Of a stretch of 64,000 nt of DNA, positions 3,370 through 64,000 are shown one piece after another. Below the pieces are notes generated by a model. The model was not told the DNA's origin. It worked only from the letters and a program-made list of their open reading frames with translations, and did not search any database. Numbering within the stretch: the first letter of the stretch is position 1; every line of letters begins with the position of its first letter. Origin of the DNA: an uncultured Eubacteriales bacterium (lineage in GTDB: Bacteria; Bacillota; Clostridia; Oscillospirales; CAG-272); NCBI GenBank assembly GCA_900546635.1, contig URDS01000005.1:73-64072 (forward strand), read 5' to 3'. Position numbers and translations under genes: made by a program.

Positions 3370-5631
3370 ATGAAAAGAAAACGATTCTGGCTGCCATTCG
3401 CTGTTTTTCTCTGCTTTTTCTGTCTGTCGGTCTGCGGTTTGGAAACCGTGCTGTACGAAAATGACTTTTCAAGCGCGGACTTGTCCGCTTTTGCGCAAAG
3501 GGGCGGCTTTACGGTGAAAGACGGAAAGCTGTATACGACAAGCGGCAACGGTCCGTCCGCATTTTTATCTTACACATTTCCCGCATCGGCACAGGGAAAG
3601 GATTACAGGGTCGATGTGGACTATATCGGTCACACCGGCATGGGCGGCATCTTAATCGGCGCGACCGGCAAAAAGCTGACAGCCGTGCCCGCATACTTTT
3701 CAGGTTATACCTGCACGACAACCACAGACGGCCAACATACATATATTGCGTATTTCAACGAGACAGGCTGGGGCGGCAACTTTGCGCCCGGCACGAACAA
3801 AATTGAATTTTCGGATATTCATTTGTCGGTTACCGTACAAAAAGGCGTGATGACCTTTCGCACCACCTCGCTTGACCGTAAAACCGAAATTCAAACTTTC
3901 CGCTATGAAATCGGCGATCATGAAAAAGACCTGTACGATACCTTTCTTTCGACGGTCGGTCTGCGAAAATATTATAATGACAGCGGCTGCTTTGATAATT
4001 TTGTAATTACGATTTTGGAAGATGACAAACTGCCCATCATGACCGAACACTTAAAGTGCGGCGATACAGATTTTTCATCGAGCGGACTTGCGGCAGACGG
4101 CGGGCTTTTGACCGGCAGCGGCGCCGCGCTTTCCGAATCGAAGCTGAGCGGGAACTACCGTCTGACCTGCGCGGTTGCAAGCAATGACATAACACGGCTG
4201 TATTTCGGAATGAAGGATGAAAAAAACGGTTACGCATTTGAGTTGAATGAAGCGGAAAAAGCCGTTTTTCTGTACAGCATCCGCGACGGCGTGTATACCT
4301 GCCTCGGCGAAAAGGAAACCAGATTGCGGAATCGTTTTTGCGACCTCACGCTTGACGTGACAGACGGTGTTGTCGCGCTTTATTATGACAATCTCCACGA
4401 GGGCGCGGCGGCTTTTCCGAAGTTTGAATTTCCGATTGCGGATGCGGACGGCAAATTTGGCTTTTGGCTGTCGGGCGGACAAATCGCAGAACTTACGCTC
4501 GGCGACGGAGCGAACATAAAGCGGGATGAAACCTATCTGAATCCGGTCTGCCCCGGCGCCGACCCGGATATGCTCTATTATGACGGCACCTATTATCTCT
4601 ATGTTTACGCAGGCAACGACGGCACCAATATTTTCCGTGTCTACACCTCACCCGACCTTGTGCATTTTACGCCGCGCAATATCGTTTTCAAATGGGACCA
4701 TGAACAATATGCCAATGTGAACGGCAAGTCCGCATGGAGCCCGAACGTCTTTTATTATGACGGTTTGTTCTATCTGTTCTTTGCCGCAAATCCTGCCGGA
4801 GACGACTCGGTACGCCACGTTTATTACGCCACCTCGGATTCGCCTTACGGTCCGTTCAAGCATGACGGTCCGCTGGTCGCTGTCAATCCGGATGTAAATG
4901 AGATCGACGGACATCCGTTCCTTGACGATGACGGACGCATTTATATGTCCTTTTCACGCTATGACCTGGGTGGCACAATCTGGCTTGAGGAGGTCAAAAT
5001 GAAGGACGGCGTGGTCACCGCGCTACCGGAAACAGCAACGCGTGTGATTATTTCCGACCGCGAATGGGACAACGACGGTGCAACACGTCTGTGCGAAGGC
5101 GGTTTCGTTTTCAAGCACAACGGCCTTTACTATATGATTTACGCGACAGTCAGCTATGCGCGTCATTACGGCGAGGCTTTCGCCGTGGCGGAACATCCGC
5201 TCGGTCCCTATAAAAAATATGACTACAATCCGTTTCTGATACACAACTATACGCTGGACGGACCGGGCGACGCGCTTGTGATACCGTCTCCCGACAAAAC
5301 CGAACTCTATCTGGTCTATCACCGGCATTTTGCCGTCGGCACGGTGCATCCGCGTCAAACCTGTGTGGATCTTATCAAATTTGTGCCCGACCCGGACGGC
5401 GGACCGGATATTTTGACGGTACGCGGACCGTCATCCACACCGCAGCCGCTGCCCTCAAACAGCGGACGTTATGACGTTAACCGCGACGGGCGCGTCACCC
5501 TTGCCGACGCGCTGAAAGCCCTGCGCGTCTGGGTTGCCGGCGGGACATACAGCGGTATTTACGATACGGATGCAAACGGTTCTGTCGGACTGAATGACGT
5601 GGTTTGTATCTTGAAAAATTTATTGAATTGA
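3370..5631 (+). CDS. Secreted multidomain GH43 glycoside hydrolase with C-terminal dockerin
   Basis: Signal peptide MKRKRFWLPFAVFLCFFCLSVCG. Two N-terminal beta-sandwich-like modules. GH43-type propeller motifs (DPDMLYYDGTYYLYVY, WSPNVFYYDGLFYLFF, DGHPFLDDDGRIYM, CEGGFVFKHNGLYYMIY). Two dockerin Ca-loops, DVNRDGRVTLAD and DTDANGSVGLND. GGAGGG RBS. Confidence 0.8.
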   Translation: MKRKRFWLPFAVFLCFFCLSVCGLETVLYENDFSSADLSAFAQRGGFTVKDGKLYTTSGNGPSAFLSYTFPASAQGKDYRVDVDYIGHTGMGGILIGATGKKLTAVPAYFSGYTCTTTTDGQHTYIAYFNETGWGGNFAPGTNKIEFSDIHLSVTVQKGVMTFRTTSLDRKTEIQTFRYEIGDHEKDLYDTFLSTVGLRKYYNDSGCFDNFVITILEDDKLPIMTEHLKCGDTDFSSSGLAADGGLLTGSGAALSESKLSGNYRLTCAVASNDITRLYFGMKDEKNGYAFELNEAEKAVFLYSIRDGVYTCLGEKETRLRNRFCDLTLDVTDGVVALYYDNLHEGAAAFPKFEFPIADADGKFGFWLSGGQIAELTLGDGANIKRDETYLNPVCPGADPDMLYYDGTYYLYVYAGNDGTNIFRVYTSPDLVHFTPRNIVFKWDHEQYANVNGKSAWSPNVFYYDGLFYLFFAANPAGDDSVRHVYYATSDSPYGPFKHDGPLVAVNPDVNEIDGHPFLDDDGRIYMSFSRYDLGGTIWLEEVKMKDGVVTALPETATRVIISDREWDNDGATRLCEGGFVFKHNGLYYMIYATVSYARHYGEAFAVAEHPLGPYKKYDYNPFLIHNYTLDGPGDALVIPSPDKTELYLVYHRHFAVGTVHPRQTCVDLIKFVPDPDGGPDILTVRGPSSTPQPLPSNSGRYDVNRDGRVTLADALKALRVWVAGGTYSGIYDTDANGSVGLNDVVCILKNLLN

Positions 5632-5787: not shown

Positions 5788-5835
5788 AAAAGGTAGACAA
5801 TATGGTAAGTTTCCATATGTCTACCTTTCTCTTCC
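5788..5835 (+). terminator. Hairpin, possible terminator of the GH43 gene
   Basis: Stem aggtagacaatatgg / ccatatgtctacct (one bulge) followed by ttctcttcc. It lies about 160 nt after the stop. Confidence 0.4.
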
Positions 5836-5867
5836 CCCTGCACTCAGCGGATAGCTCCCGTTATACG

Positions 5868-5898
5868 AAAAAGCAGCCGCGCACAGGCGGCTGCCTTC
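5868..5898 (-). terminator. tsf terminator copy that retains the U-tract (left copy of the 26-bp duplication)
   Basis: On the minus strand this reads gaaggcagccgc-ctgtgc-gcggctgc followed by TTTTT. Confidence 0.6.
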
Positions 5899-6062
5899 TG
5901 ACCGTCGAAAAACGAAGGTTTTCCGACGATGAGGCGCGTTCGCTCGCGCCGTCGCGCCGCCCTTGGCGGCACTCGCACGCCTGTAAGGTGTTTACAAGGC
6001 GGCACAGGTCCGCCTTGTAAACGTATTTGATTTGCGATTTTCACTTCTTTGACAGACTGAAG
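5899..6062 (+). mobile_element. MITE-like structured repeat, copy A (164 bp)
   Basis: Flanked by 26-bp direct repeats at 5873-5898 and 6063-6088 (25/26 identical). The 124-nt core 5903-6026 matches the reverse complement of 9687-9810 at 116/124 positions with no gaps (hand count). The first 12 nt recur at 63989-64000. No credible ORF. Confidence 0.75.
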
Positions 6063-6151
6063 GCAGCCGCACACAGGCGGCTGCCTTCACTTTCTATCAA
6101 ACGTTTTGTTGTCCTTTTTACAAGCTACCCGGCTTTGGCTTTTATTCGCTT

Positions 6152-7078
6152 TCAGCCATTCACCATTTTATTGATCTCTTCGGCAAAGTTTTCTTCGCGC
6201 TTCTGAATGCCCTCGCCTTTTTCAAAGCGATAGAAAGCCGTAACCGCGATCTTGCCGCCGAACTCTTTGGCGGAAGCTTCAACATACTTCTTTACGCTCA
6301 TGGAATCTTCCTTGACATAAGCCTGCTCTAAAAGGCAATTTGCTTCATAAAACTTTCCGATTCTGCCGTCAACCATCTTTTCCTTAATTTGTTCCGGCTT
6401 CTTCGCGCTCTTTTCATCATTGTTGATCTGAGACATGATGATTTCACGCTCTTCAGCGATTCTGGATGCCGGAACAGCCTCGATGTTGAGATACTCAACC
6501 GGGTATGCCGCAGCCTGCAATGCAATATTCTTCGCAAATTCCGCAAAGCCGGCATTGTTCTTTGCCGCATCATCCGCGTCAAATTTCACAACAACGCCGA
6601 TCGAACCGCCGCCGTGGATATAAGAACTGGTCACGCCCTCCACAACAACGAAACGGCGAATGTCCATCTTCTCGCCGATGGTAAAGATCATTTCTTTGAT
6701 CTTATCCTCAACCGTAATATCCGCATCTGCAAATTTACAAGCCTTCAAAGCCGCTACATCGGCAGGTCTCTGCGCGATGATCGTCTTGAGAATGCCGCGG
6801 ACAAATTCACGGAACGACTCGTTTTTCGCAACGAAATCAGTTTCGGAATTTACCTCAATCATAGCGGAAACATTGTCCTCGGTCAAAATATCAACGATGC
6901 CCTCGGCGGCGATTCTGTCCGCCTTTTTAGCGGCGACCGCCAGTCCTCTTTCACGGAGAACTTTAATCGCCTCGTCCATATTCCCGTCCGCTTCGACAAG
7001 CGCATTTTTGCACTCCATCATGCCGCAGCCGGTCTTTTTTCTAAGCTCGGCAACGTCTTTTGCACTGATTGCAGCCAT
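6152..7078 (-). CDS. tsf: Translation elongation factor Ts
   Basis: MAAISAKDVAELRKKTGCGMMECKNAL N-terminus and an EF-Ts core. ATG 7078 follows GAGGGA. The ORF-track upstream extension is Arg-rich read-through. Confidence 0.95.
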   Translation of the reverse strand: MAAISAKDVAELRKKTGCGMMECKNALVEADGNMDEAIKVLRERGLAVAAKKADRIAAEGIVDILTEDNVSAMIEVNSETDFVAKNESFREFVRGILKTIIAQRPADVAALKACKFADADITVEDKIKEMIFTIGEKMDIRRFVVVEGVTSSYIHGGGSIGVVVKFDADDAAKNNAGFAEFAKNIALQAAAYPVEYLNIEAVPASRIAEEREIIMSQINNDEKSAKKPEQIKEKMVDGRIGKFYEANCLLEQAYVKEDSMSVKKYVEASAKEFGGKIAVTAFYRFEKGEGIQKREENFAEEINKMVNG

Positions 7079-8507: not shown

Positions 8508-9356
8508 GTGATCCTTTTGCGTGAATTTATTACACCGGATTTTGTAAAAAACGCGCTTCCGAAACGAAAACGACAGTCAAACAAATCTACCTACGGCCGT
8601 GTACTGCTCGTCTGCGGAAGCGATTGTATGCGCGGAGCCGCCGCACTGGCTGCGCGCGGCGCGCTTCGAATGGGCGCCGGACTTGTAACCGTCGCATCCT
8701 CGAAAGCCGTGATCGACACGCTCTCTGTTTCCCTCTGCGAACCGATTTATTTAGACACGGAAACCGACAATCTTTTTCAAGCGGCAGAGCGAATGCAGGC
8801 CATCGGCCTCGGATGCGGTCTCGGCCGCACAGAAAAGACGGCCGCATGGACGATCGAATTTTTATCCTCTGCCGGCGCCCCGCTGATTCTGGATGCCGAC
8901 GGTATCAACGTACTGAGCGGACAGGCAGCGTTTCTGAAAGCGGCGAAGCGTCCGGTTTTGCTCACGCCGCATCCCTTAGAATTTTCCCGGCTGACAGGGC
9001 TCCCGATAGAGGCCATTCAATCTGACCGCGAAAACACTGCGAAACGGTTTGCCGCCCAATACGGCGTCACACTTTTGCTCAAAGGCGCGGACACCGTGGT
9101 CACGGACGGAGAAACCGTATATGTCAATCCTACCGGTTCAAGCGCGCTTGCCAAGGGCGGAAGCGGAGACACGCTTTTGGGTATGATCTGCGCGTTTGCA
9201 GCGCAGGGCGCGTCGCTTTTAAATGCGGCGGCTATTGCGGCCTATCTGCACGGACTGGCAGGCGAGCGCCTTTCCAAAATCTATTCGGAATACGGCGTAC
9301 TGCCAAGCGATCTCCCCGAAAAAGCCGCGCAAATTCTGGCCGAATGGGGATTCTAA
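8508..9356 (+). CDS. nnrD: ADP-dependent NAD(P)H-hydrate dehydratase (YjeF C-terminal type, no epimerase domain)
   Basis: Motifs STYGRVLLVCGS, AALAARGALRMGAGLVTV and a C-terminal GGSGDTLLGMI. The start codon is uncertain (GTG 8508 or TTG 8517). Confidence 0.8.
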   Translation: MILLREFITPDFVKNALPKRKRQSNKSTYGRVLLVCGSDCMRGAAALAARGALRMGAGLVTVASSKAVIDTLSVSLCEPIYLDTETDNLFQAAERMQAIGLGCGLGRTEKTAAWTIEFLSSAGAPLILDADGINVLSGQAAFLKAAKRPVLLTPHPLEFSRLTGLPIEAIQSDRENTAKRFAAQYGVTLLLKGADTVVTDGETVYVNPTGSSALAKGGSGDTLLGMICAFAAQGASLLNAAAIAAYLHGLAGERLSKIYSEYGVLPSDLPEKAAQILAEWGF

Positions 9357-9615: not shown

Positions 9616-9648
9616 AAATTTAAAACAGGGAAGCTACCGCTTCCCTGT
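9616..9648 (-). terminator. rpsU terminator copy that retains the U-tract (left copy of the 26-bp duplication)
   Basis: On the minus strand this reads acagggaagc-ggta-gcttccctgt followed by TTTTAAATTT. Confidence 0.6.
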
Positions 9649-9813
9649 CAGCTTGTCGATCAAGATAAGAATTGCAAATAAAAAAAATACGTTTACAAGG
9701 CGGACATGCGCCGCCTTGTAAACACCTTACAGGCGTGCGAGTGCCGACAATGGCGGCGCGACGGCGCGAGCGAACACGCCCTATCGTCGGAAAACCTTGG
9801 TTTTTCGACGCTC
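9649..9813 (-). mobile_element. MITE-like structured repeat, copy B (165 bp, inverted relative to copy A)
   Basis: Flanked by perfect 26-bp direct repeats aaacagggaagctaccgcttccctgt at 9623-9648 and 9814-9839. The core is 116/124 identical to copy A. Confidence 0.75.
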
Positions 9814-9844
9814 AAACAGGGAAGCTACCGCTTCCCTGTTTTGA

Positions 9845-10021
9845 TTACTTATACTTACGCTTGCGTGCCGCCTCAGATTTCTTTTTGCGCTTAACGCTCG
9901 GCTTCTCATAATGTTCTCTTTTGCGAAGTTCGGTAAGCACACCGGATCTTGCACACTGGCGTTTAAAGCGGCGAAGAGCGCTGTCAAGAGATTCATTTTC
10001 TTTCACTCTGACTTCTGCCAT
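9845..10021 (-). CDS. rpsU: 30S ribosomal protein S21
   Basis: [28 protein letters not shown]. The ATG follows GGGAGGGA. Confidence 0.95.
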
Positions 10022-56818: not shown

Positions 56819-56896
56819 TGGGGTGACTGATGGGATTCGAACCCACGACCTCCAGGGCCACAACCTGGCGCTCTAACCAACTGAGCTACAACCACC
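56819..56896 (-). tRNA. tRNA-His (anticodon GTG), with encoded G-1 and CCA
   Basis: Hand-folded cloverleaf: GGTGGTTG-TA-GCTC...GAGC-G-CCAGG-TTGTGGC-CCTGG-AGGTC-GTGGG-TTCGAAT-CCCAT-CAGTCAC-C-CCA. Confidence 0.9.
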
Positions 56897-56921: not shown

Positions 56922-56998
<77 letters not shown>

Positions 56999-60302: not shown

Positions 60303-62059
60303 AAAAATGGCTGAAGTATGTAAAGCCATACACAAAATACTTTATTCTGGGTCCGCTGTGCATGATCGTGGAGGTTGTCGGTGAGGTTGCAATGCCGAAG
60401 CTCTACTCCATGATCGTCGGTCATGCAGAAAAACATCTGAGCGCGCAGGCAGACGGTTCCGTCTTGTACGTAACCGGCATTGCGCTGTTGATGGTGCTCA
60501 CCGCGCTGCTGATGATGGCCGGCGGAATCGGCGGCGCGTATTTCGGCGCAAAAGCCGCCGTCAATTTTGCAAGCGACCTGCGTCTTGACGTATACAAGCG
60601 GGTTCAGGACTTTTCTTTTGCCAACATAGACAAATTCCAAACCGGCTCCCTGATTACCCGTCTGACCAACGACGTGACACAGCTTCAAAACTTTGTCAAT
60701 ATGCTGCTGCGAATGTTTCTGCGCGCCCCCGGTATGCTGATCGGCGCGCTGATTATGTGCATCTCGCTCAGCCCGAAGCTTGCGCTGGTTCTGGCGGCGG
60801 CCATTCCGGTGCTTGCCGTTCTGCTTTTCTTTATTGTCAAAGTCGGTTTTCCGCGCTTCGGCGTTATGCAGACAAAAATTGACGCGCTGAACAATACAGT
60901 CGGCGAAAATCTGACCAATATGCGCGTGGTAAAATCCTTTGTCCGCGAAGATTTTGAAAATGAGAAATTCCACAAAGCCAACAACAATCTGAAAGAAGCC
61001 GGTCTTCGCGCCATGAACGTGATGATCTTCACCCAGCCGATCATGATGCTGGTCATGAACCTGACCTCCCTTGCCGTGATCTACTTCGGCGGCAATATGG
61101 TCATCGGTGGGAGCCTTGCCATTCAGGATTTTTCCGCGCTGCTCACCTACATCATGCAGATTCTGATGTCTCTGATGATGATTACCATGCTCTTTATGAT
61201 TAGTTCGCGCGCGCTGGCGTCCTCGCGGAGAATTACCGAGGTGCTTGAGGAAAAAATCGATCTCAACGACACCAACGCCGCGCACAAAGATAAAAAGGTT
61301 GAAAAGGGCGAGGTCGAATTTAAAAATGTCGGCTTTCGCTATTATAAAAACAGCCCGGACGAAGTCCTGAGCAAGATCAGCTTTACAATTCATGCCGGTG
61401 AGACGCTCGGTATTATCGGCGGCACCGGCAGCGGAAAGACTACGCTTGTGTCCCTGATCCCCCGCCTGTACGACACAGACGAAGGCGAGATTCTGATCGA
61501 CGGCGTCAATGTAAAAGACTATGACATGCATACGCTGCGGGACGGTATCGGCATGGTGCTTCAAAAGAATCTGCTTTTTGCCGGAACCGTTGAAGAAAAT
61601 CTCCGCTGGGGAGATGAAAACGCTTCCGAAGCCGAACTCCGGGAAGCGGCGCAGTCCTCGCAGGCAGACGGGTTCGTTCAAAGCTTTAGCGGCGGCTACG
61701 CGCATGAAATCGAGCGCGGCGGCGCCAATGTCTCCGGCGGACAAAAGCAGCGTCTGTGCATTGCGCGCGCACTGTTGAAAAAGCCGAAAATCCTGATATT
61801 GGACGATTCGACCAGCGCTGTGGACACGGCTACCGAAGCCAAAATCCGAGAGGCGTTTAAAACCAGTCTGAAAGACTCCACAAAAATTATCATTGCACAG
61901 CGTATTTCCTCGGTTCAGGACGCGGATAGAATCCTTGTGCTGGAGGACGGGCGCATTGCCGGCCTCGGTCGTCACGACGAACTTCTGCAAAGCTGCGAGG
62001 AATACCGTGAAATTTACACACTGCAGATCGAAAGCAAGGGGGTAGAGGAAAATGGCTAA
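60293..62059 (+). CDS. ABC exporter, fused permease/ATPase (heterodimer subunit 1)
   Basis: Six-TM domain, Walker A GGTGSGKTT, VSGGQKQR, and Walker B ILILDDSTS. TTG start; exact position uncertain. Confidence 0.9.
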   Translation: MHLKKWLKYVKPYTKYFILGPLCMIVEVVGEVAMPKLYSMIVGHAEKHLSAQADGSVLYVTGIALLMVLTALLMMAGGIGGAYFGAKAAVNFASDLRLDVYKRVQDFSFANIDKFQTGSLITRLTNDVTQLQNFVNMLLRMFLRAPGMLIGALIMCISLSPKLALVLAAAIPVLAVLLFFIVKVGFPRFGVMQTKIDALNNTVGENLTNMRVVKSFVREDFENEKFHKANNNLKEAGLRAMNVMIFTQPIMMLVMNLTSLAVIYFGGNMVIGGSLAIQDFSALLTYIMQILMSLMMITMLFMISSRALASSRRITEVLEEKIDLNDTNAAHKDKKVEKGEVEFKNVGFRYYKNSPDEVLSKISFTIHAGETLGIIGGTGSGKTTLVSLIPRLYDTDEGEILIDGVNVKDYDMHTLRDGIGMVLQKNLLFAGTVEENLRWGDENASEAELREAAQSSQADGFVQSFSGGYAHEIERGGANVSGGQKQRLCIARALLKKPKILILDDSTSAVDTATEAKIREAFKTSLKDSTKIIIAQRISSVQDADRILVLEDGRIAGLGRHDELLQSCEEYREIYTLQIESKGVEENG

Positions 62060-63950
62060 ACGAACCCTGGAAAATCTGCAAAAGCAGTATAATTCCTATA
62101 CGGCGGCTGTGAAAAGCGGCCCCATGCGCGGTCCGGGGCCGGGTGGTCCGGGGCCGGGCGGTCCCGGAGCCCATGGCCGAATCTCCGCATCCAAGCCCAA
62201 GGGCGACACCAAAAAGGTGATCCGGCGGCTGCTTTCCTACATCGGTTCCTACAAATATATCCTGCTCATTGCGTTTGTTTTTCTGATCGTCTCCACACTT
62301 GCGGGCACGGCGGCATCCTATCTGCTCCGCCCCATTGTCAATACGCTGGTTGACGGCAGCATGACCGTATCAGACCGGGCAGCGTATATTCTCAAAACGG
62401 TCTTTCTGCTGCTCGGTATTTACCTTGTACAAGTGCTGTTCCAATATCTGCAAGCAAAGCTGATGCTGCGGGTTTCCCAAAACGCAATGGAAAAGCTGCG
62501 CAACGACCTGTTTGCCAAGATTCAAAAACTGCCCGTCAGATTTTTTGACAATGAAAGCCACGGTGAAATCATGAGCCGCTTTACAAACGACGTCGATAAT
62601 GTGGCCACCATGTTTGACAGCACGCTGACCAGCCTGATTTCCGGCGCCATTACGCTTCTCAGCACTTTTGCGATCATGTGCTACACCAACATCTGGCTCA
62701 CGCTGATTACCGTAGCCTTTATCCCGGTGTTTATTTTCGGCGGCGGCGCGATCGCCAAGCGCTCCCGTAAATATTATTCCGCACAGCAGGCTGCGCTCGG
62801 CGCGGTAAACGGTTATATTGAAGAAAGCGTTTCCGGACAAAAAGTCATCAAAGTCTTTAACCATGAGCAAACCTGCACCGAGGAATTTGCACTGCTCAAC
62901 GACGATCTGCGGGAAAAGCAGATTTCCGCGCAGTTCTACGGCGGTATCATGGGGCCGATCATGGGCAACGCCGGGCAAATCAGCTATGCGCTGACAGCGG
63001 GAATCGGCGGTATCCTCTGCCTGACGCGCGGCTTTGACATCGGCGGCCTCACGATTTTTGTCAACTATGCCCGCCAATTTGCCCGCCCAATCAACGAAAT
63101 TTCCATGCAGATGAGTACGGTCTTCTCCGCGCTGGCCGGCGCTGAGCGTGTGTTCAACATATTGGACCGCGCTGAGGAAGAACCGGATGTACCCGACGCA
63201 AACGATGTGCCGAATATGCGGGGATATGTCAAACTAAACGACGTTACTTTCGGTTATGTACCGGATAAAACCATTCTGAAACACATCTCGCTCTACGCAA
63301 AACCGGGGCAGAAGATCGCCTTTGTCGGCTCGACCGGCGCGGGAAAAACGACCATCACCAATCTGCTGAATCGGTTTTACGATATTGAAGCCGGTGAAAT
63401 CACAATCGACGATGTCAATATCCGAAACATCAAACGCGACATACTTCGTAAAAATATCGCGATGGTCTTGCAGGATACGCATCTGTTTACCGGAACGGTC
63501 ATGGAAAATATTCGCTACGGACGGCTGGATGCAACCGACGAGGAAGTTATTCAAGCCGCCAAAACGGCAAGCGCACATAGCTTTATCATGCGTCTGGAAA
63601 ACGGGTACGACACCATGATTACCGGCGACGGCGCAAACCTCTCCCAGGGACAGCGGCAGCTTTTGAATATTGCGCGCGCCGCCATTTCCAAAGCGCCGAT
63701 TTTGGTGCTGGACGAGGCGACAAGCTCCGTAGACACGCGAACCGAGCGGCATATCGAACGCGGCATGGATCGCCTGATGCAGAACCGTACGACCTTTGTC
63801 ATCGCGCACCGGCTCTCAACCGTGCGGAACGCAAGCGCCATCATGGTGCTGGAAAACGGCGAGATCATCGAGCGGGGCACGCATGACGATCTTCTGGCGC
63901 TGCGGGGACGCTATTACGAACTGTATACCGGCAAAAAAGAATTGGACTGA
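62052..63950 (+). CDS. ABC exporter, fused permease/ATPase (heterodimer subunit 2) with a Gly/Pro-rich N-terminal tail
   Basis: Walker A GSTGAGKTT, LSQGQRQL, and Walker B ILVLDEATS. It overlaps subunit 1 by 8 nt. Confidence 0.9.
   Translation: MAKRTLENLQKQYNSYTAAVKSGPMRGPGPGGPGPGGPGAHGRISASKPKGDTKKVIRRLLSYIGSYKYILLIAFVFLIVSTLAGTAASYLLRPIVNTLVDGSMTVSDRAAYILKTVFLLLGIYLVQVLFQYLQAKLMLRVSQNAMEKLRNDLFAKIQKLPVRFFDNESHGEIMSRFTNDVDNVATMFDSTLTSLISGAITLLSTFAIMCYTNIWLTLITVAFIPVFIFGGGAIAKRSRKYYSAQQAALGAVNGYIEESVSGQKVIKVFNHEQTCTEEFALLNDDLREKQISAQFYGGIMGPIMGNAGQISYALTAGIGGILCLTRGFDIGGLTIFVNYARQFARPINEISMQMSTVFSALAGAERVFNILDRAEEEPDVPDANDVPNMRGYVKLNDVTFGYVPDKTILKHISLYAKPGQKIAFVGSTGAGKTTITNLLNRFYDIEAGEITIDDVNIRNIKRDILRKNIAMVLQDTHLFTGTVMENIRYGRLDATDEEVIQAAKTASAHSFIMRLENGYDTMITGDGANLSQGQRQLLNIARAAISKAPILVLDEATSSVDTRTERHIERGMDRLMQNRTTFVIAHRLSTVRNASAIMVLENGEIIERGTHDDLLALRGRYYELYTGKKELD
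62130..62168 (+). repeat. 15-bp in-frame tandem repeat (about 2.6 copies) encoding (GPGPG)n
   Basis: ggtccggggccgggt / ggtccggggccgggc / ggtcccgga. Confidence 0.8.
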
Positions 63951-63961
63951 GCTTCATATTC

Positions 63962-63988
63962 AGGCGGACAGCAAAAACTGTCCGCCTC
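63962..63988 (+). terminator. Terminator hairpin of the ABC operon, also the insertion site of repeat copy C
   Basis: Stem GGCGGACAG-caaaaa-CTGTCCGCC, immediately followed by the repeat terminus tgaccgtcgaaa instead of a T-tract. Confidence 0.6.
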
Positions 63989-64000
63989 TGACCGTCGAAA
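63989..64000 (+). mobile_element. MITE-like structured repeat, copy C (only the first 12 nt are inside the window)
   Basis: tgaccgtcgaaa is identical to the first 12 nt of copy A (5899-5910) and sits in the same position relative to a terminator hairpin. Confidence 0.5.

Follow-up and report, generated by a model that had tools for sequence, protein, structure and literature searches.

A gene-less repeat inserted at terminator hairpins in gut Clostridia, with duplication of the hairpin

In the 64,000-nt stretch of DNA from an uncultured Eubacteriales bacterium that was analysed here (the window), the spacer between a GH43 gene (3370-5631, + strand) and tsf (6152-7078, - strand), whose nearest named homologues are from Clostridia and Oscillospiraceae MAGs, carries the same terminator hairpin twice, with non-coding DNA between the two copies. 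This raises the question of whether the paired hairpins are the target-site duplication of a mobile element and, if so, how a whole hairpin could be duplicated on insertion. The initial annotation of this locus had proposed a hairpin-recognising insertion with a 26-bp duplication, which it could not place in any known family.

Three copies of the repeat in the window

The flanking repeat described in the initial annotation was recovered as GCAGCCGC[G/A]CACAGGCGGCTGCCTTC at 5873-5898 and 6063-6088, identical at 25/26 positions, with the sole mismatch at a loop position (5881 g vs 6071 a). A repeat search extended the pair to 29 nt at 93% identity (5870-5898 / 6060-6088). The left target copy (5873-5898) consists of the terminator hairpin GCAGCCGC-GCACAG-GCGGCTGC followed by CTTC, and the A-run upstream of it (5868-5872), read on the minus strand as the T-run of the tsf terminator, has been retained. 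The right target copy (6063-6088) forms a stem of 12-13 bp when joined with the terminal GAAG of the element, and the native downstream sequence toward tsf resumes after it. Between the two lies element copy A (5899-6062, + strand), a short variant of 164 nt that was detected by nhmmer over profile positions 2-161 (E = 2.6e-52). It is non-coding; a credible ORF had been denied to it before, and the only two ORFs, of 72 and 76 aa, are spurious and reach into the flanks. Another strong hairpin (GGTAGACAATATGG...CCATATGTCTACC) is found in the GH43-tsf spacer at 5792-5825, outside the element.

Copy B is the reverse complement of copy A, with arms of 135 nt (5899-6033 / 9680-9814) that are 92% identical. 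It is also a short variant, of 165 nt (9649-9813, - strand; nhmmer, profile positions 2-161, E = 1.3e-50), and is located between an NnrD-like carbohydrate-kinase gene (8508-9356, +) and rpsU (9845-10021, -). The flanking direct repeat, AAACAGGGAAGCTACCGCTTCCCTGT at 9623-9648 and 9814-9839, is exact over 26 nt, and the hairpin is unlike that of site A: it is the rpsU terminator hairpin, AAACAGGGAAGC-TACC-GCTTCCCTGT, one copy of which (9623-9648) abuts the right end of copy B and the other of which (9814-9839) adjoins the rpsU stop codon (9845). The orientation of the element to the upstream gene is antisense at site A (tsf) and sense at site B (rpsU). Of copy C, only the left end, CTGACCGTCGAAA, is present (63988-64000, +), as it is cut by the end of the window; it follows a target hairpin, AGGCGGACAG-CAAAAA-CTGTCCGCCT (63962-63987), 3' of an ABC-transporter gene (62052-63950, +). 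The recurrence with different flanks that had been reported for 9649-9813 and for the window end is therefore upheld, apart from the start of the third copy, which is 63988 and not 63989.

In a sister genome, GCA_964324025.1, all three window sites are occupied by the element, and the copy at site C (contig L001) is complete, with an exact 26-nt duplication of AGGCGGACAGCAAAAACTGTCCGCCT around it. All three sites have locus-specific 26-nt duplications, matching at 25/26 at site A, exact at site B, and seen at site C via the sister strain. The sister strain carries a long variant at all three sites (L109:160-440, L109:3985-4290 and L001:11911-12188), with an extra hairpin-rich module of ~73 nt that is bounded by a short repeat (GGGCGTGTAT/GGGGCGTAT), and the window strain carries the short variant with identical tips at site A (5899-6062) and site B (9649-9813). 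This strain-wide pattern resembles concerted change across loci, by gene conversion or repeated deletion. The two strains have the hairpin of site C in common and differ there in the four tip bases and in the internal module, suggesting that the same hairpin has been used repeatedly.

The element as a whole is a 160-230 nt non-coding repeat with imperfect terminal inverted repeats of 15-16 nt, conserved internal hairpins and a terminator-like hairpin of its own. In copy A, the left terminal inverted repeat is TGACCGTCGAAAAAC (5899-5913, +; family consensus C(T/A)GACCGTCGAAAAAC), the first C of which may be common with the last base of the duplication. Subterminal hairpin 1, CGTCGAAAAAC-GAAG-GTTTTCCGACG (5903-5928, +), begins 5 nt inside the left end, as had been noted, and has compensatory changes at two pairs. 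It is followed by a central multi-stem domain (5932-5982, +), in which two small GC hairpins lie inside a closing stem; this domain was derived from an RNAalifold consensus with compensatory pairs 37:86, 40:83 and 49:60. The GC hairpin named in the initial annotation is present as GCCGCC-CTT-GGCGGC, the loop given there as aag being ctt on the + strand, a trivial difference. Terminator scoring identified an internal hairpin, GTTTACAAGGCGG-CACAGGT-CCGCCTTGTAAAC (5990-6022), with a T-rich tail (together 5990-6036, +), and its stem (GTTTACAAGGCGG/CCGCCTTGTAAAC) is perfect over 13 bp. The pattern of this hairpin occurs twice in the window against 0 expected; the hairpin is invariant in the family, but the pattern with which the copies were collected was picked from the same region. 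Both the flanking hairpins and the internal hairpin score as terminator-like.

The right terminal inverted repeat, defined from the sequence and the family alignment, is CTTCTTTGACAGACTG (6044-6059), followed by 3 nt, AAG, to the end of the element (6044-6062, +). The weak inverted repeat of the two ends that had been suspected from copy A is genuine and also stands in the family consensus. In copy A, the right end reads CAGTCTGTCAAAGAAG in reverse complement and agrees with the left end at 10-11/16 positions, depending on the left-tip variant aligned, and in the family C(T/A)GACCGTCGAAAAAC matches the right-end reverse complement CAGTCTGTCAAAAAAG at ~11/16. The ends C(T/A)GACCGTCGAAAAAC and ...TTTTTTGACAGACTG (or ATCGACAAGCTG) are common to 24 aligned copies as an imperfect inverted repeat. 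In one subfamily, an outward TTGACA, a -35-like hexamer, is found 5 nt from the right tip (cf. window 6044-6059), with no matching -10 identified.

The description of copy A as strongly structured was confirmed by RNA folding of 5899-6062 (-66.9 kcal/mol, z = -3.5, 0/200 shuffles equally stable), and copy A with its flanks, folded as DNA, gave z = -8.2 vs shuffled controls. The consensus fold comprises hairpin 1, the closed multi-stem domain and the terminator hairpin, with compensatory changes at five pairs. These changes give modest support for a selected fold, which could be that of an RNA or of single-stranded DNA alike.

Flanking hairpins and the geometry of the duplication

An exact-pattern scan of one genome per species detected the element in one MAG only, that of an uncultured Eubacteriales, the copies of which have duplications of 26, 29 and 64 nt. 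A metagenome scan added 90 stretches with the element, nearly all of them from one assembly, OLGD01. With a profile built from five copies, 181 hits were obtained and combined into ~110 composite matches across the 90 metagenome stretches and the one reference MAG, a collection that is skewed to copies retaining the 18-mer used in the scan. A diverged relative of ~125 nt was met by chance at L113:3470-3600 (also in L114), 3' of the tsf terminator in a species whose tsf is 84% identical, and the family is therefore wider than this collection. The terminator hairpin at L113 has the same loop (CGCATGT), and the flank is just an 11-nt repeat of the hairpin 3' arm (ATCGGTCTTTT).

Strong hairpins are located within a few nt of both ends in 33/37 full-length internal copies, compared with 2.7% of 1,500 positions drawn at random from the same DNA, which bears out the claim that insertion is aimed at hairpins. 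The same hairpin is present on both sides in 27/37, unrelated hairpins are present on the two sides in 7/37, and the left hairpin is absent in 3/37. It was considered whether the copies with unrelated hairpins represent a second mechanism. This was rejected, as the reciprocal partners adjoin elements at other contig ends in three cases (L025 right = L033 left; L071 right = L018 left; L095 left = L040 right), suggesting that these copies are assembly chimeras or the result of recombination through the repeat.

The flanking hairpin pairs often differ by an inverted loop with the stems unchanged, as in L014, L017, L021, L026, L054 and L057. Direct vs inverted flank copies were considered as a clue to the mechanism and were rejected as such: the stem of L017 keeps its G·T asymmetry and only the loop is flipped, so the loop inversions arose after insertion.

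At sites homologous to the occupied ones, single hairpins were found. In 8/10 related-species contigs with an identical S21 protein, rpsU is followed by just one terminator hairpin, AAAAACAGGGAAGC-nnnn-GCTTCCCTGATTTTT, whose stem is the same (CAGGGAAGC/GCTTCCCTG), and the tsf terminators of related species are likewise single hairpins; these are homologous sites and not strictly orthologous strain-level alleles. The insert is present in all contigs that share the exact tsf protein of the window. In one related species (L104:3178-3750, also L106), the 3' arm of the rpsU terminator is split (GCTTC|GGCCTCATAAGG) by ~570 nt of unrelated non-coding sequence.

The flanks are thus target-site duplications, as originally proposed, being the same hairpin in most copies, specific to each locus and centred on the dyad, with a single hairpin at the homologous rpsU terminator. 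Orthologous empty sites that already have two hairpins, or a lack of flanking duplications at other copies, had been named in advance as evidence against this reading, and neither objection was borne out. A different explanation is that the repeat is a structured small-RNA or regulatory module that is not mobile, of which the flanking hairpins are functional parts and which arose by ordinary duplication or recombination. The conserved core fold, with its few compensatory changes and its own terminator, is in keeping with such a module. However, the flanking hairpins are wholly different among loci yet identical within a locus, the homologous terminators of related species are single hairpins, the element is oriented differently with respect to the upstream gene at A (antisense, tsf) and at B (sense, rpsU), and there is neither an Rfam family nor a promoter-like site. 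We therefore regard a non-mobile module as highly improbable. The Rfam check that had been suggested returned no family match: the covariance search of the window gave gathering-score matches to two tRNA genes only (56822-56895 and 56925-56998, -), and in a permissive search of 5800-6150 the top sub-threshold score was 20.6 bits vs a cut-off of 50.

To define the duplication itself, the empty sites of 21 distinct duplications were rebuilt, giving lengths of 19, 20, 23 (x4), 26 (x6), 27, 28, 29 (x4), 31, 32 and 34 nt. The centre of the duplication was ≤2 nt from the dyad of the palindrome in 20/21, and its length was ≤4 nt off the palindrome length in 14/21. At the six longest palindromes (35-47 nt), the duplication was 8-21 nt shorter than the palindrome, yet still centred. 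The length of the duplication tracks the structure and is not set by a ruler, and the 26 bp of the window is a coincidence of hairpin size. The initial annotation had expected ~26 bp at each copy; a fixed length of 26 bp did not hold, as the duplications range over 19-34 nt, with one case of 64. Two simpler rules were also rejected. Duplication of the entire palindrome is contradicted by the rebuilt long-palindrome sites with their shorter, centred duplications, and a fixed 26-bp stagger of an IS1202-like kind is contradicted by the range of 19-34 nt and by ends that are not TGT/ACA.

It is shown by these data that a gene-less repeat with inverted ends has been inserted into terminator palindromes, in either orientation, and that the palindrome has been duplicated symmetrically. 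The 64-nt case is found at L003:1458-1735, where the exact flanking duplication comprises the hairpin and 39 nt upstream of it, and where the right end of the element is truncated at profile position 145. This copy does not fit a model of symmetric attack.

Possible routes of insertion

Our preferred explanation, which we consider probable, is that the repeat is a non-autonomous MITE-type element moved in trans by symmetric strand transfer into terminator palindromes, with an IS1630-like transposase as the likeliest driver. The element is <500 bp long, has no transposase gene, and has terminal inverted repeats, locus-specific duplications and many dispersed copies, all of which are features of MITEs; a related autonomous IS with the same ends, which is a further feature, was not present in the sequences searched.

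A transposase encoded elsewhere would act in trans on both ends of the element, and the two ends would be joined to the two target strands symmetrically about the dyad, at the base of the stem or slightly within it. Two single-stranded gaps would remain, and their repair would copy the whole hairpin, leaving one complete hairpin on each side. Spacings of 19-34 bp, or about two to three helical turns, would be out of reach for one protein geometry on B-DNA, and we therefore infer attack on a cruciform: the palindrome would be extruded and attacked at the four-way junction, where the points of attack are adjacent, and the position of the branch point would set the variable length of the duplication.

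Such an insertion could be nearly harmless. The left hairpin would keep the upstream A-run and the right hairpin the downstream T-run, and the element would contribute its own terminator in one orientation only. With hairpins and runs kept and a terminator added, the flanking genes would remain terminated, which would explain why insertions are tolerated beside tsf, rpsU and many other genes.

The parent of such a MITE was searched for in several ways. Neither a transposase gene nor a longer element sharing the ends of the repeat turned up in the window, in 944 kb of fetched flanks, in plasmid and phage collections or in viral contigs. Multi-copy ORFs in the 944 kb of flanks, a solo-end motif scan of these flanks, and blastn against plasmids and phages did not reveal a parent IS, and scans of viral contigs for the element ends gave chance 14-16-mers only.

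A single IS30-family IS was observed, an active one in a related species from the same clade, which serves as a precedent for an IS30-type driver. L111:3482-4573 and L112:3427-3480 are a filled/empty pair, in which the 1.09-kb IS encodes a 320-aa transposase (NF033563, E = 2e-81). It lies in the T-tract right after the tsf terminator of this species, and has duplicated a short T-run. This IS was rejected as the parent, as its ends are unrelated and its duplication is that short T-run. No additional copy was detected in the fetched sequences by phmmer with an IS30-family transposase as query. Since the searches yielded neither a parent IS nor a transposase with matching ends, the place of the element in the IS30 family is not proven.

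Some features of the family are less expected of a transposon. The left tip is not strictly kept: besides CTGAC/CAGAC, a T-rich tip occurs, the variation being confined to a minority of copies. A variable left tip is unusual for a transposon end and counts against the transposon reading. Besides the long form with its extra hairpin-rich module of ~73 nt, the variants include 118-nt tandem arrays, tail-to-tail pairs with one common hairpin and right-truncated copies. The tandem arrays (profile positions 4-119) finish in one full unit, as at L024:1902-2176, L025:1619-1898, L041:1886-2273, L085:10205-10562 and others, and the junctions within them connect the internal hairpin's 3' base (CCGCCTT) with the T-rich left tip (TTTCCGCCG).

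These variants bear on a route in which no dedicated transposase is involved and the element is spread by template switching during replication. Having just replicated a hairpin, the nascent strand would leave its template, continue on a copy of the element immediately 3' of another hairpin, and finally return to the original template upstream of the first hairpin, so that the hairpin is duplicated. The left junction is invariably the 3' base of a hairpin followed by the element, and the T-rich left tip is identical to the sequence after the internal hairpin in the 118-nt arrays, which template switching would itself explain. The 64-nt duplication of L003 with its right end cut at profile position 145, the partial repeat of only 11 nt at L113, and the right-truncated copies without a right hairpin also agree with this route. 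On the other hand, there is a conserved terminal inverted repeat and a sharp right end (GACAGACTG) that abuts the hairpin in most copies, and dyad symmetry within 2 nt is not expected from a homology-free return switch. Moreover, no microhomology is seen between the element ends and the varied target hairpins. We consider this route improbable.

A broader alternative, which we regard as doubtful, is that the driver is not of the IS30 type, being either an uncharacterised structure-specific transposase or integrase that reads the four-way junction of a cruciform, or hairpin-to-hairpin template switching. DNA structure alone would then set both the target and the length of the duplication, and the three-stem fold with its terminator would be a functional small-RNA cargo carried to dozens of gene ends.

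Known elements with long duplications, and minor variants

The insertion signature is that of IS1630, an IS30-family element of Mycoplasma fermentans, and an IS1630-like transposase is the most likely driver of the MITE-type element proposed here. According to the title of the 1999 paper on it, as cited in later work, IS1630 inserts into and duplicates inverted repeats (PMC2853133, PMC7648426, PMC3317919). In strain M64, its copies have duplicated junctions of 16, 23, 25 and 26 bp (PMC3317919). ISMhom-1 has been described in similar terms, and is counted with ISMbov6 among the relatives of IS1630. The likeness consists in the duplication of inverted repeats and in a length that varies among copies of one element (16-26 bp vs 19-34 nt here). 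The duplicated repeats of IS1630 reportedly come from the rho-independent terminators of neighbouring genes.

IS1630 differs from the element in being an autonomous IS of 1.4 kb, with 27-bp inverted repeats, an IS30-type transposase and a Mollicute host, whereas the element has 160-230 nt, no gene, ends of ~16 nt, gut Clostridia as hosts, duplications of up to 34 nt, and tandem arrays. As judged from this comparison, the element works like IS1630 and would be a non-autonomous addition to a rare, already known insertion style. The earlier statement that no known family behaves in this way therefore has to be withdrawn, as IS1630 is a precedent and long duplications are also known from the IS1202 group and from IS1634/IS1549.

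No parent IS was found, and the same kind of element could be driven by one of these other long-duplication families, the IS1202 group (TnsB-like) or the IS1634/IS1549 type (IS4-related). Unusually long duplications are documented for both, with targets that are not understood. In the IS1202 group (IS1202, ISSeq2, ISTde1 and others), duplications of 16-28 bp occur with no recognised target sequence, and the likeness to the element lies in this unusual length. IS1202-family ends, however, are 5'-TGT...ACA-3', and the length is fixed for each IS (16, 17, 27 or 28), whereas the element ends in C(T/A)G...CTG with duplications of 19-34 nt; when the element was examined for TGT...ACA outer ends and for a single characteristic duplication length, it showed neither. 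The group has a TnsB-like transposase, and targeting of palindromes is not reported for it. IS1634 and IS1549 have variable duplications of 8-514 bp, for which there is no mechanistic model, and share with the element that the duplications are long and variable; but the family norm is 5-6 bp of AT-rich sequence, and neither centring on palindromes nor any relation to hairpins has been reported. A driver from either family is given a low probability here.

Classical bacterial MITEs (Correia/NEMIS, RUP, ERIC, Nezha and others) resemble the element in being small, gene-less, strongly folded, intergenic and multi-copy, with terminal inverted repeats and presumed movement in trans. They differ in their short duplications (~2-10 bp), and duplication of a whole terminator hairpin is not described in the reviews consulted. 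For EFAR, the Enterococcus faecalis repeats of Venditti et al. 2007, it is said that stem-loop targets may be duplicated too. A more distant analogy is the duplication of the CRISPR repeat by Cas1-Cas2, in which two staggered strand transfers border an often palindromic sequence of ~28-37 bp and are followed by gap repair. The target would be duplicated by gap repair in both systems, but Cas1-Cas2 is guided by a ruler and by sequence, acts at one locus and inserts spacers, and no cas genes or repeat arrays are involved here.

That a terminator hairpin can be duplicated as a whole was known from IS1630 (1999), yet with only a handful of copies behind it this has stayed a curiosity, for which we found no mechanistic model. 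The present family gives dozens of independent insertions in gut Clostridia, from which usable rules can be drawn: the cuts are dyad-symmetric, the length follows the palindrome (19-34 nt) and falls below it at very long palindromes, and each side is left with a hairpin. Such rules suggest that a cruciform or four-way junction is attacked, an idea that is thus testable in vitro. For annotation, identical terminator pairs that lie 160-230 nt apart at gene ends can be used as a mark of such elements. Bidirectional terminators are split by the element, which also brings in one of its own, and short-read assemblies break at it.

The internal terminator hairpin was also observed on its own. At L004:1214-1273, 3' of a gene, it is present with its T-tail and the rest of the element is absent; this solo hairpin could be a remnant of a former copy, or the source of the terminator module.
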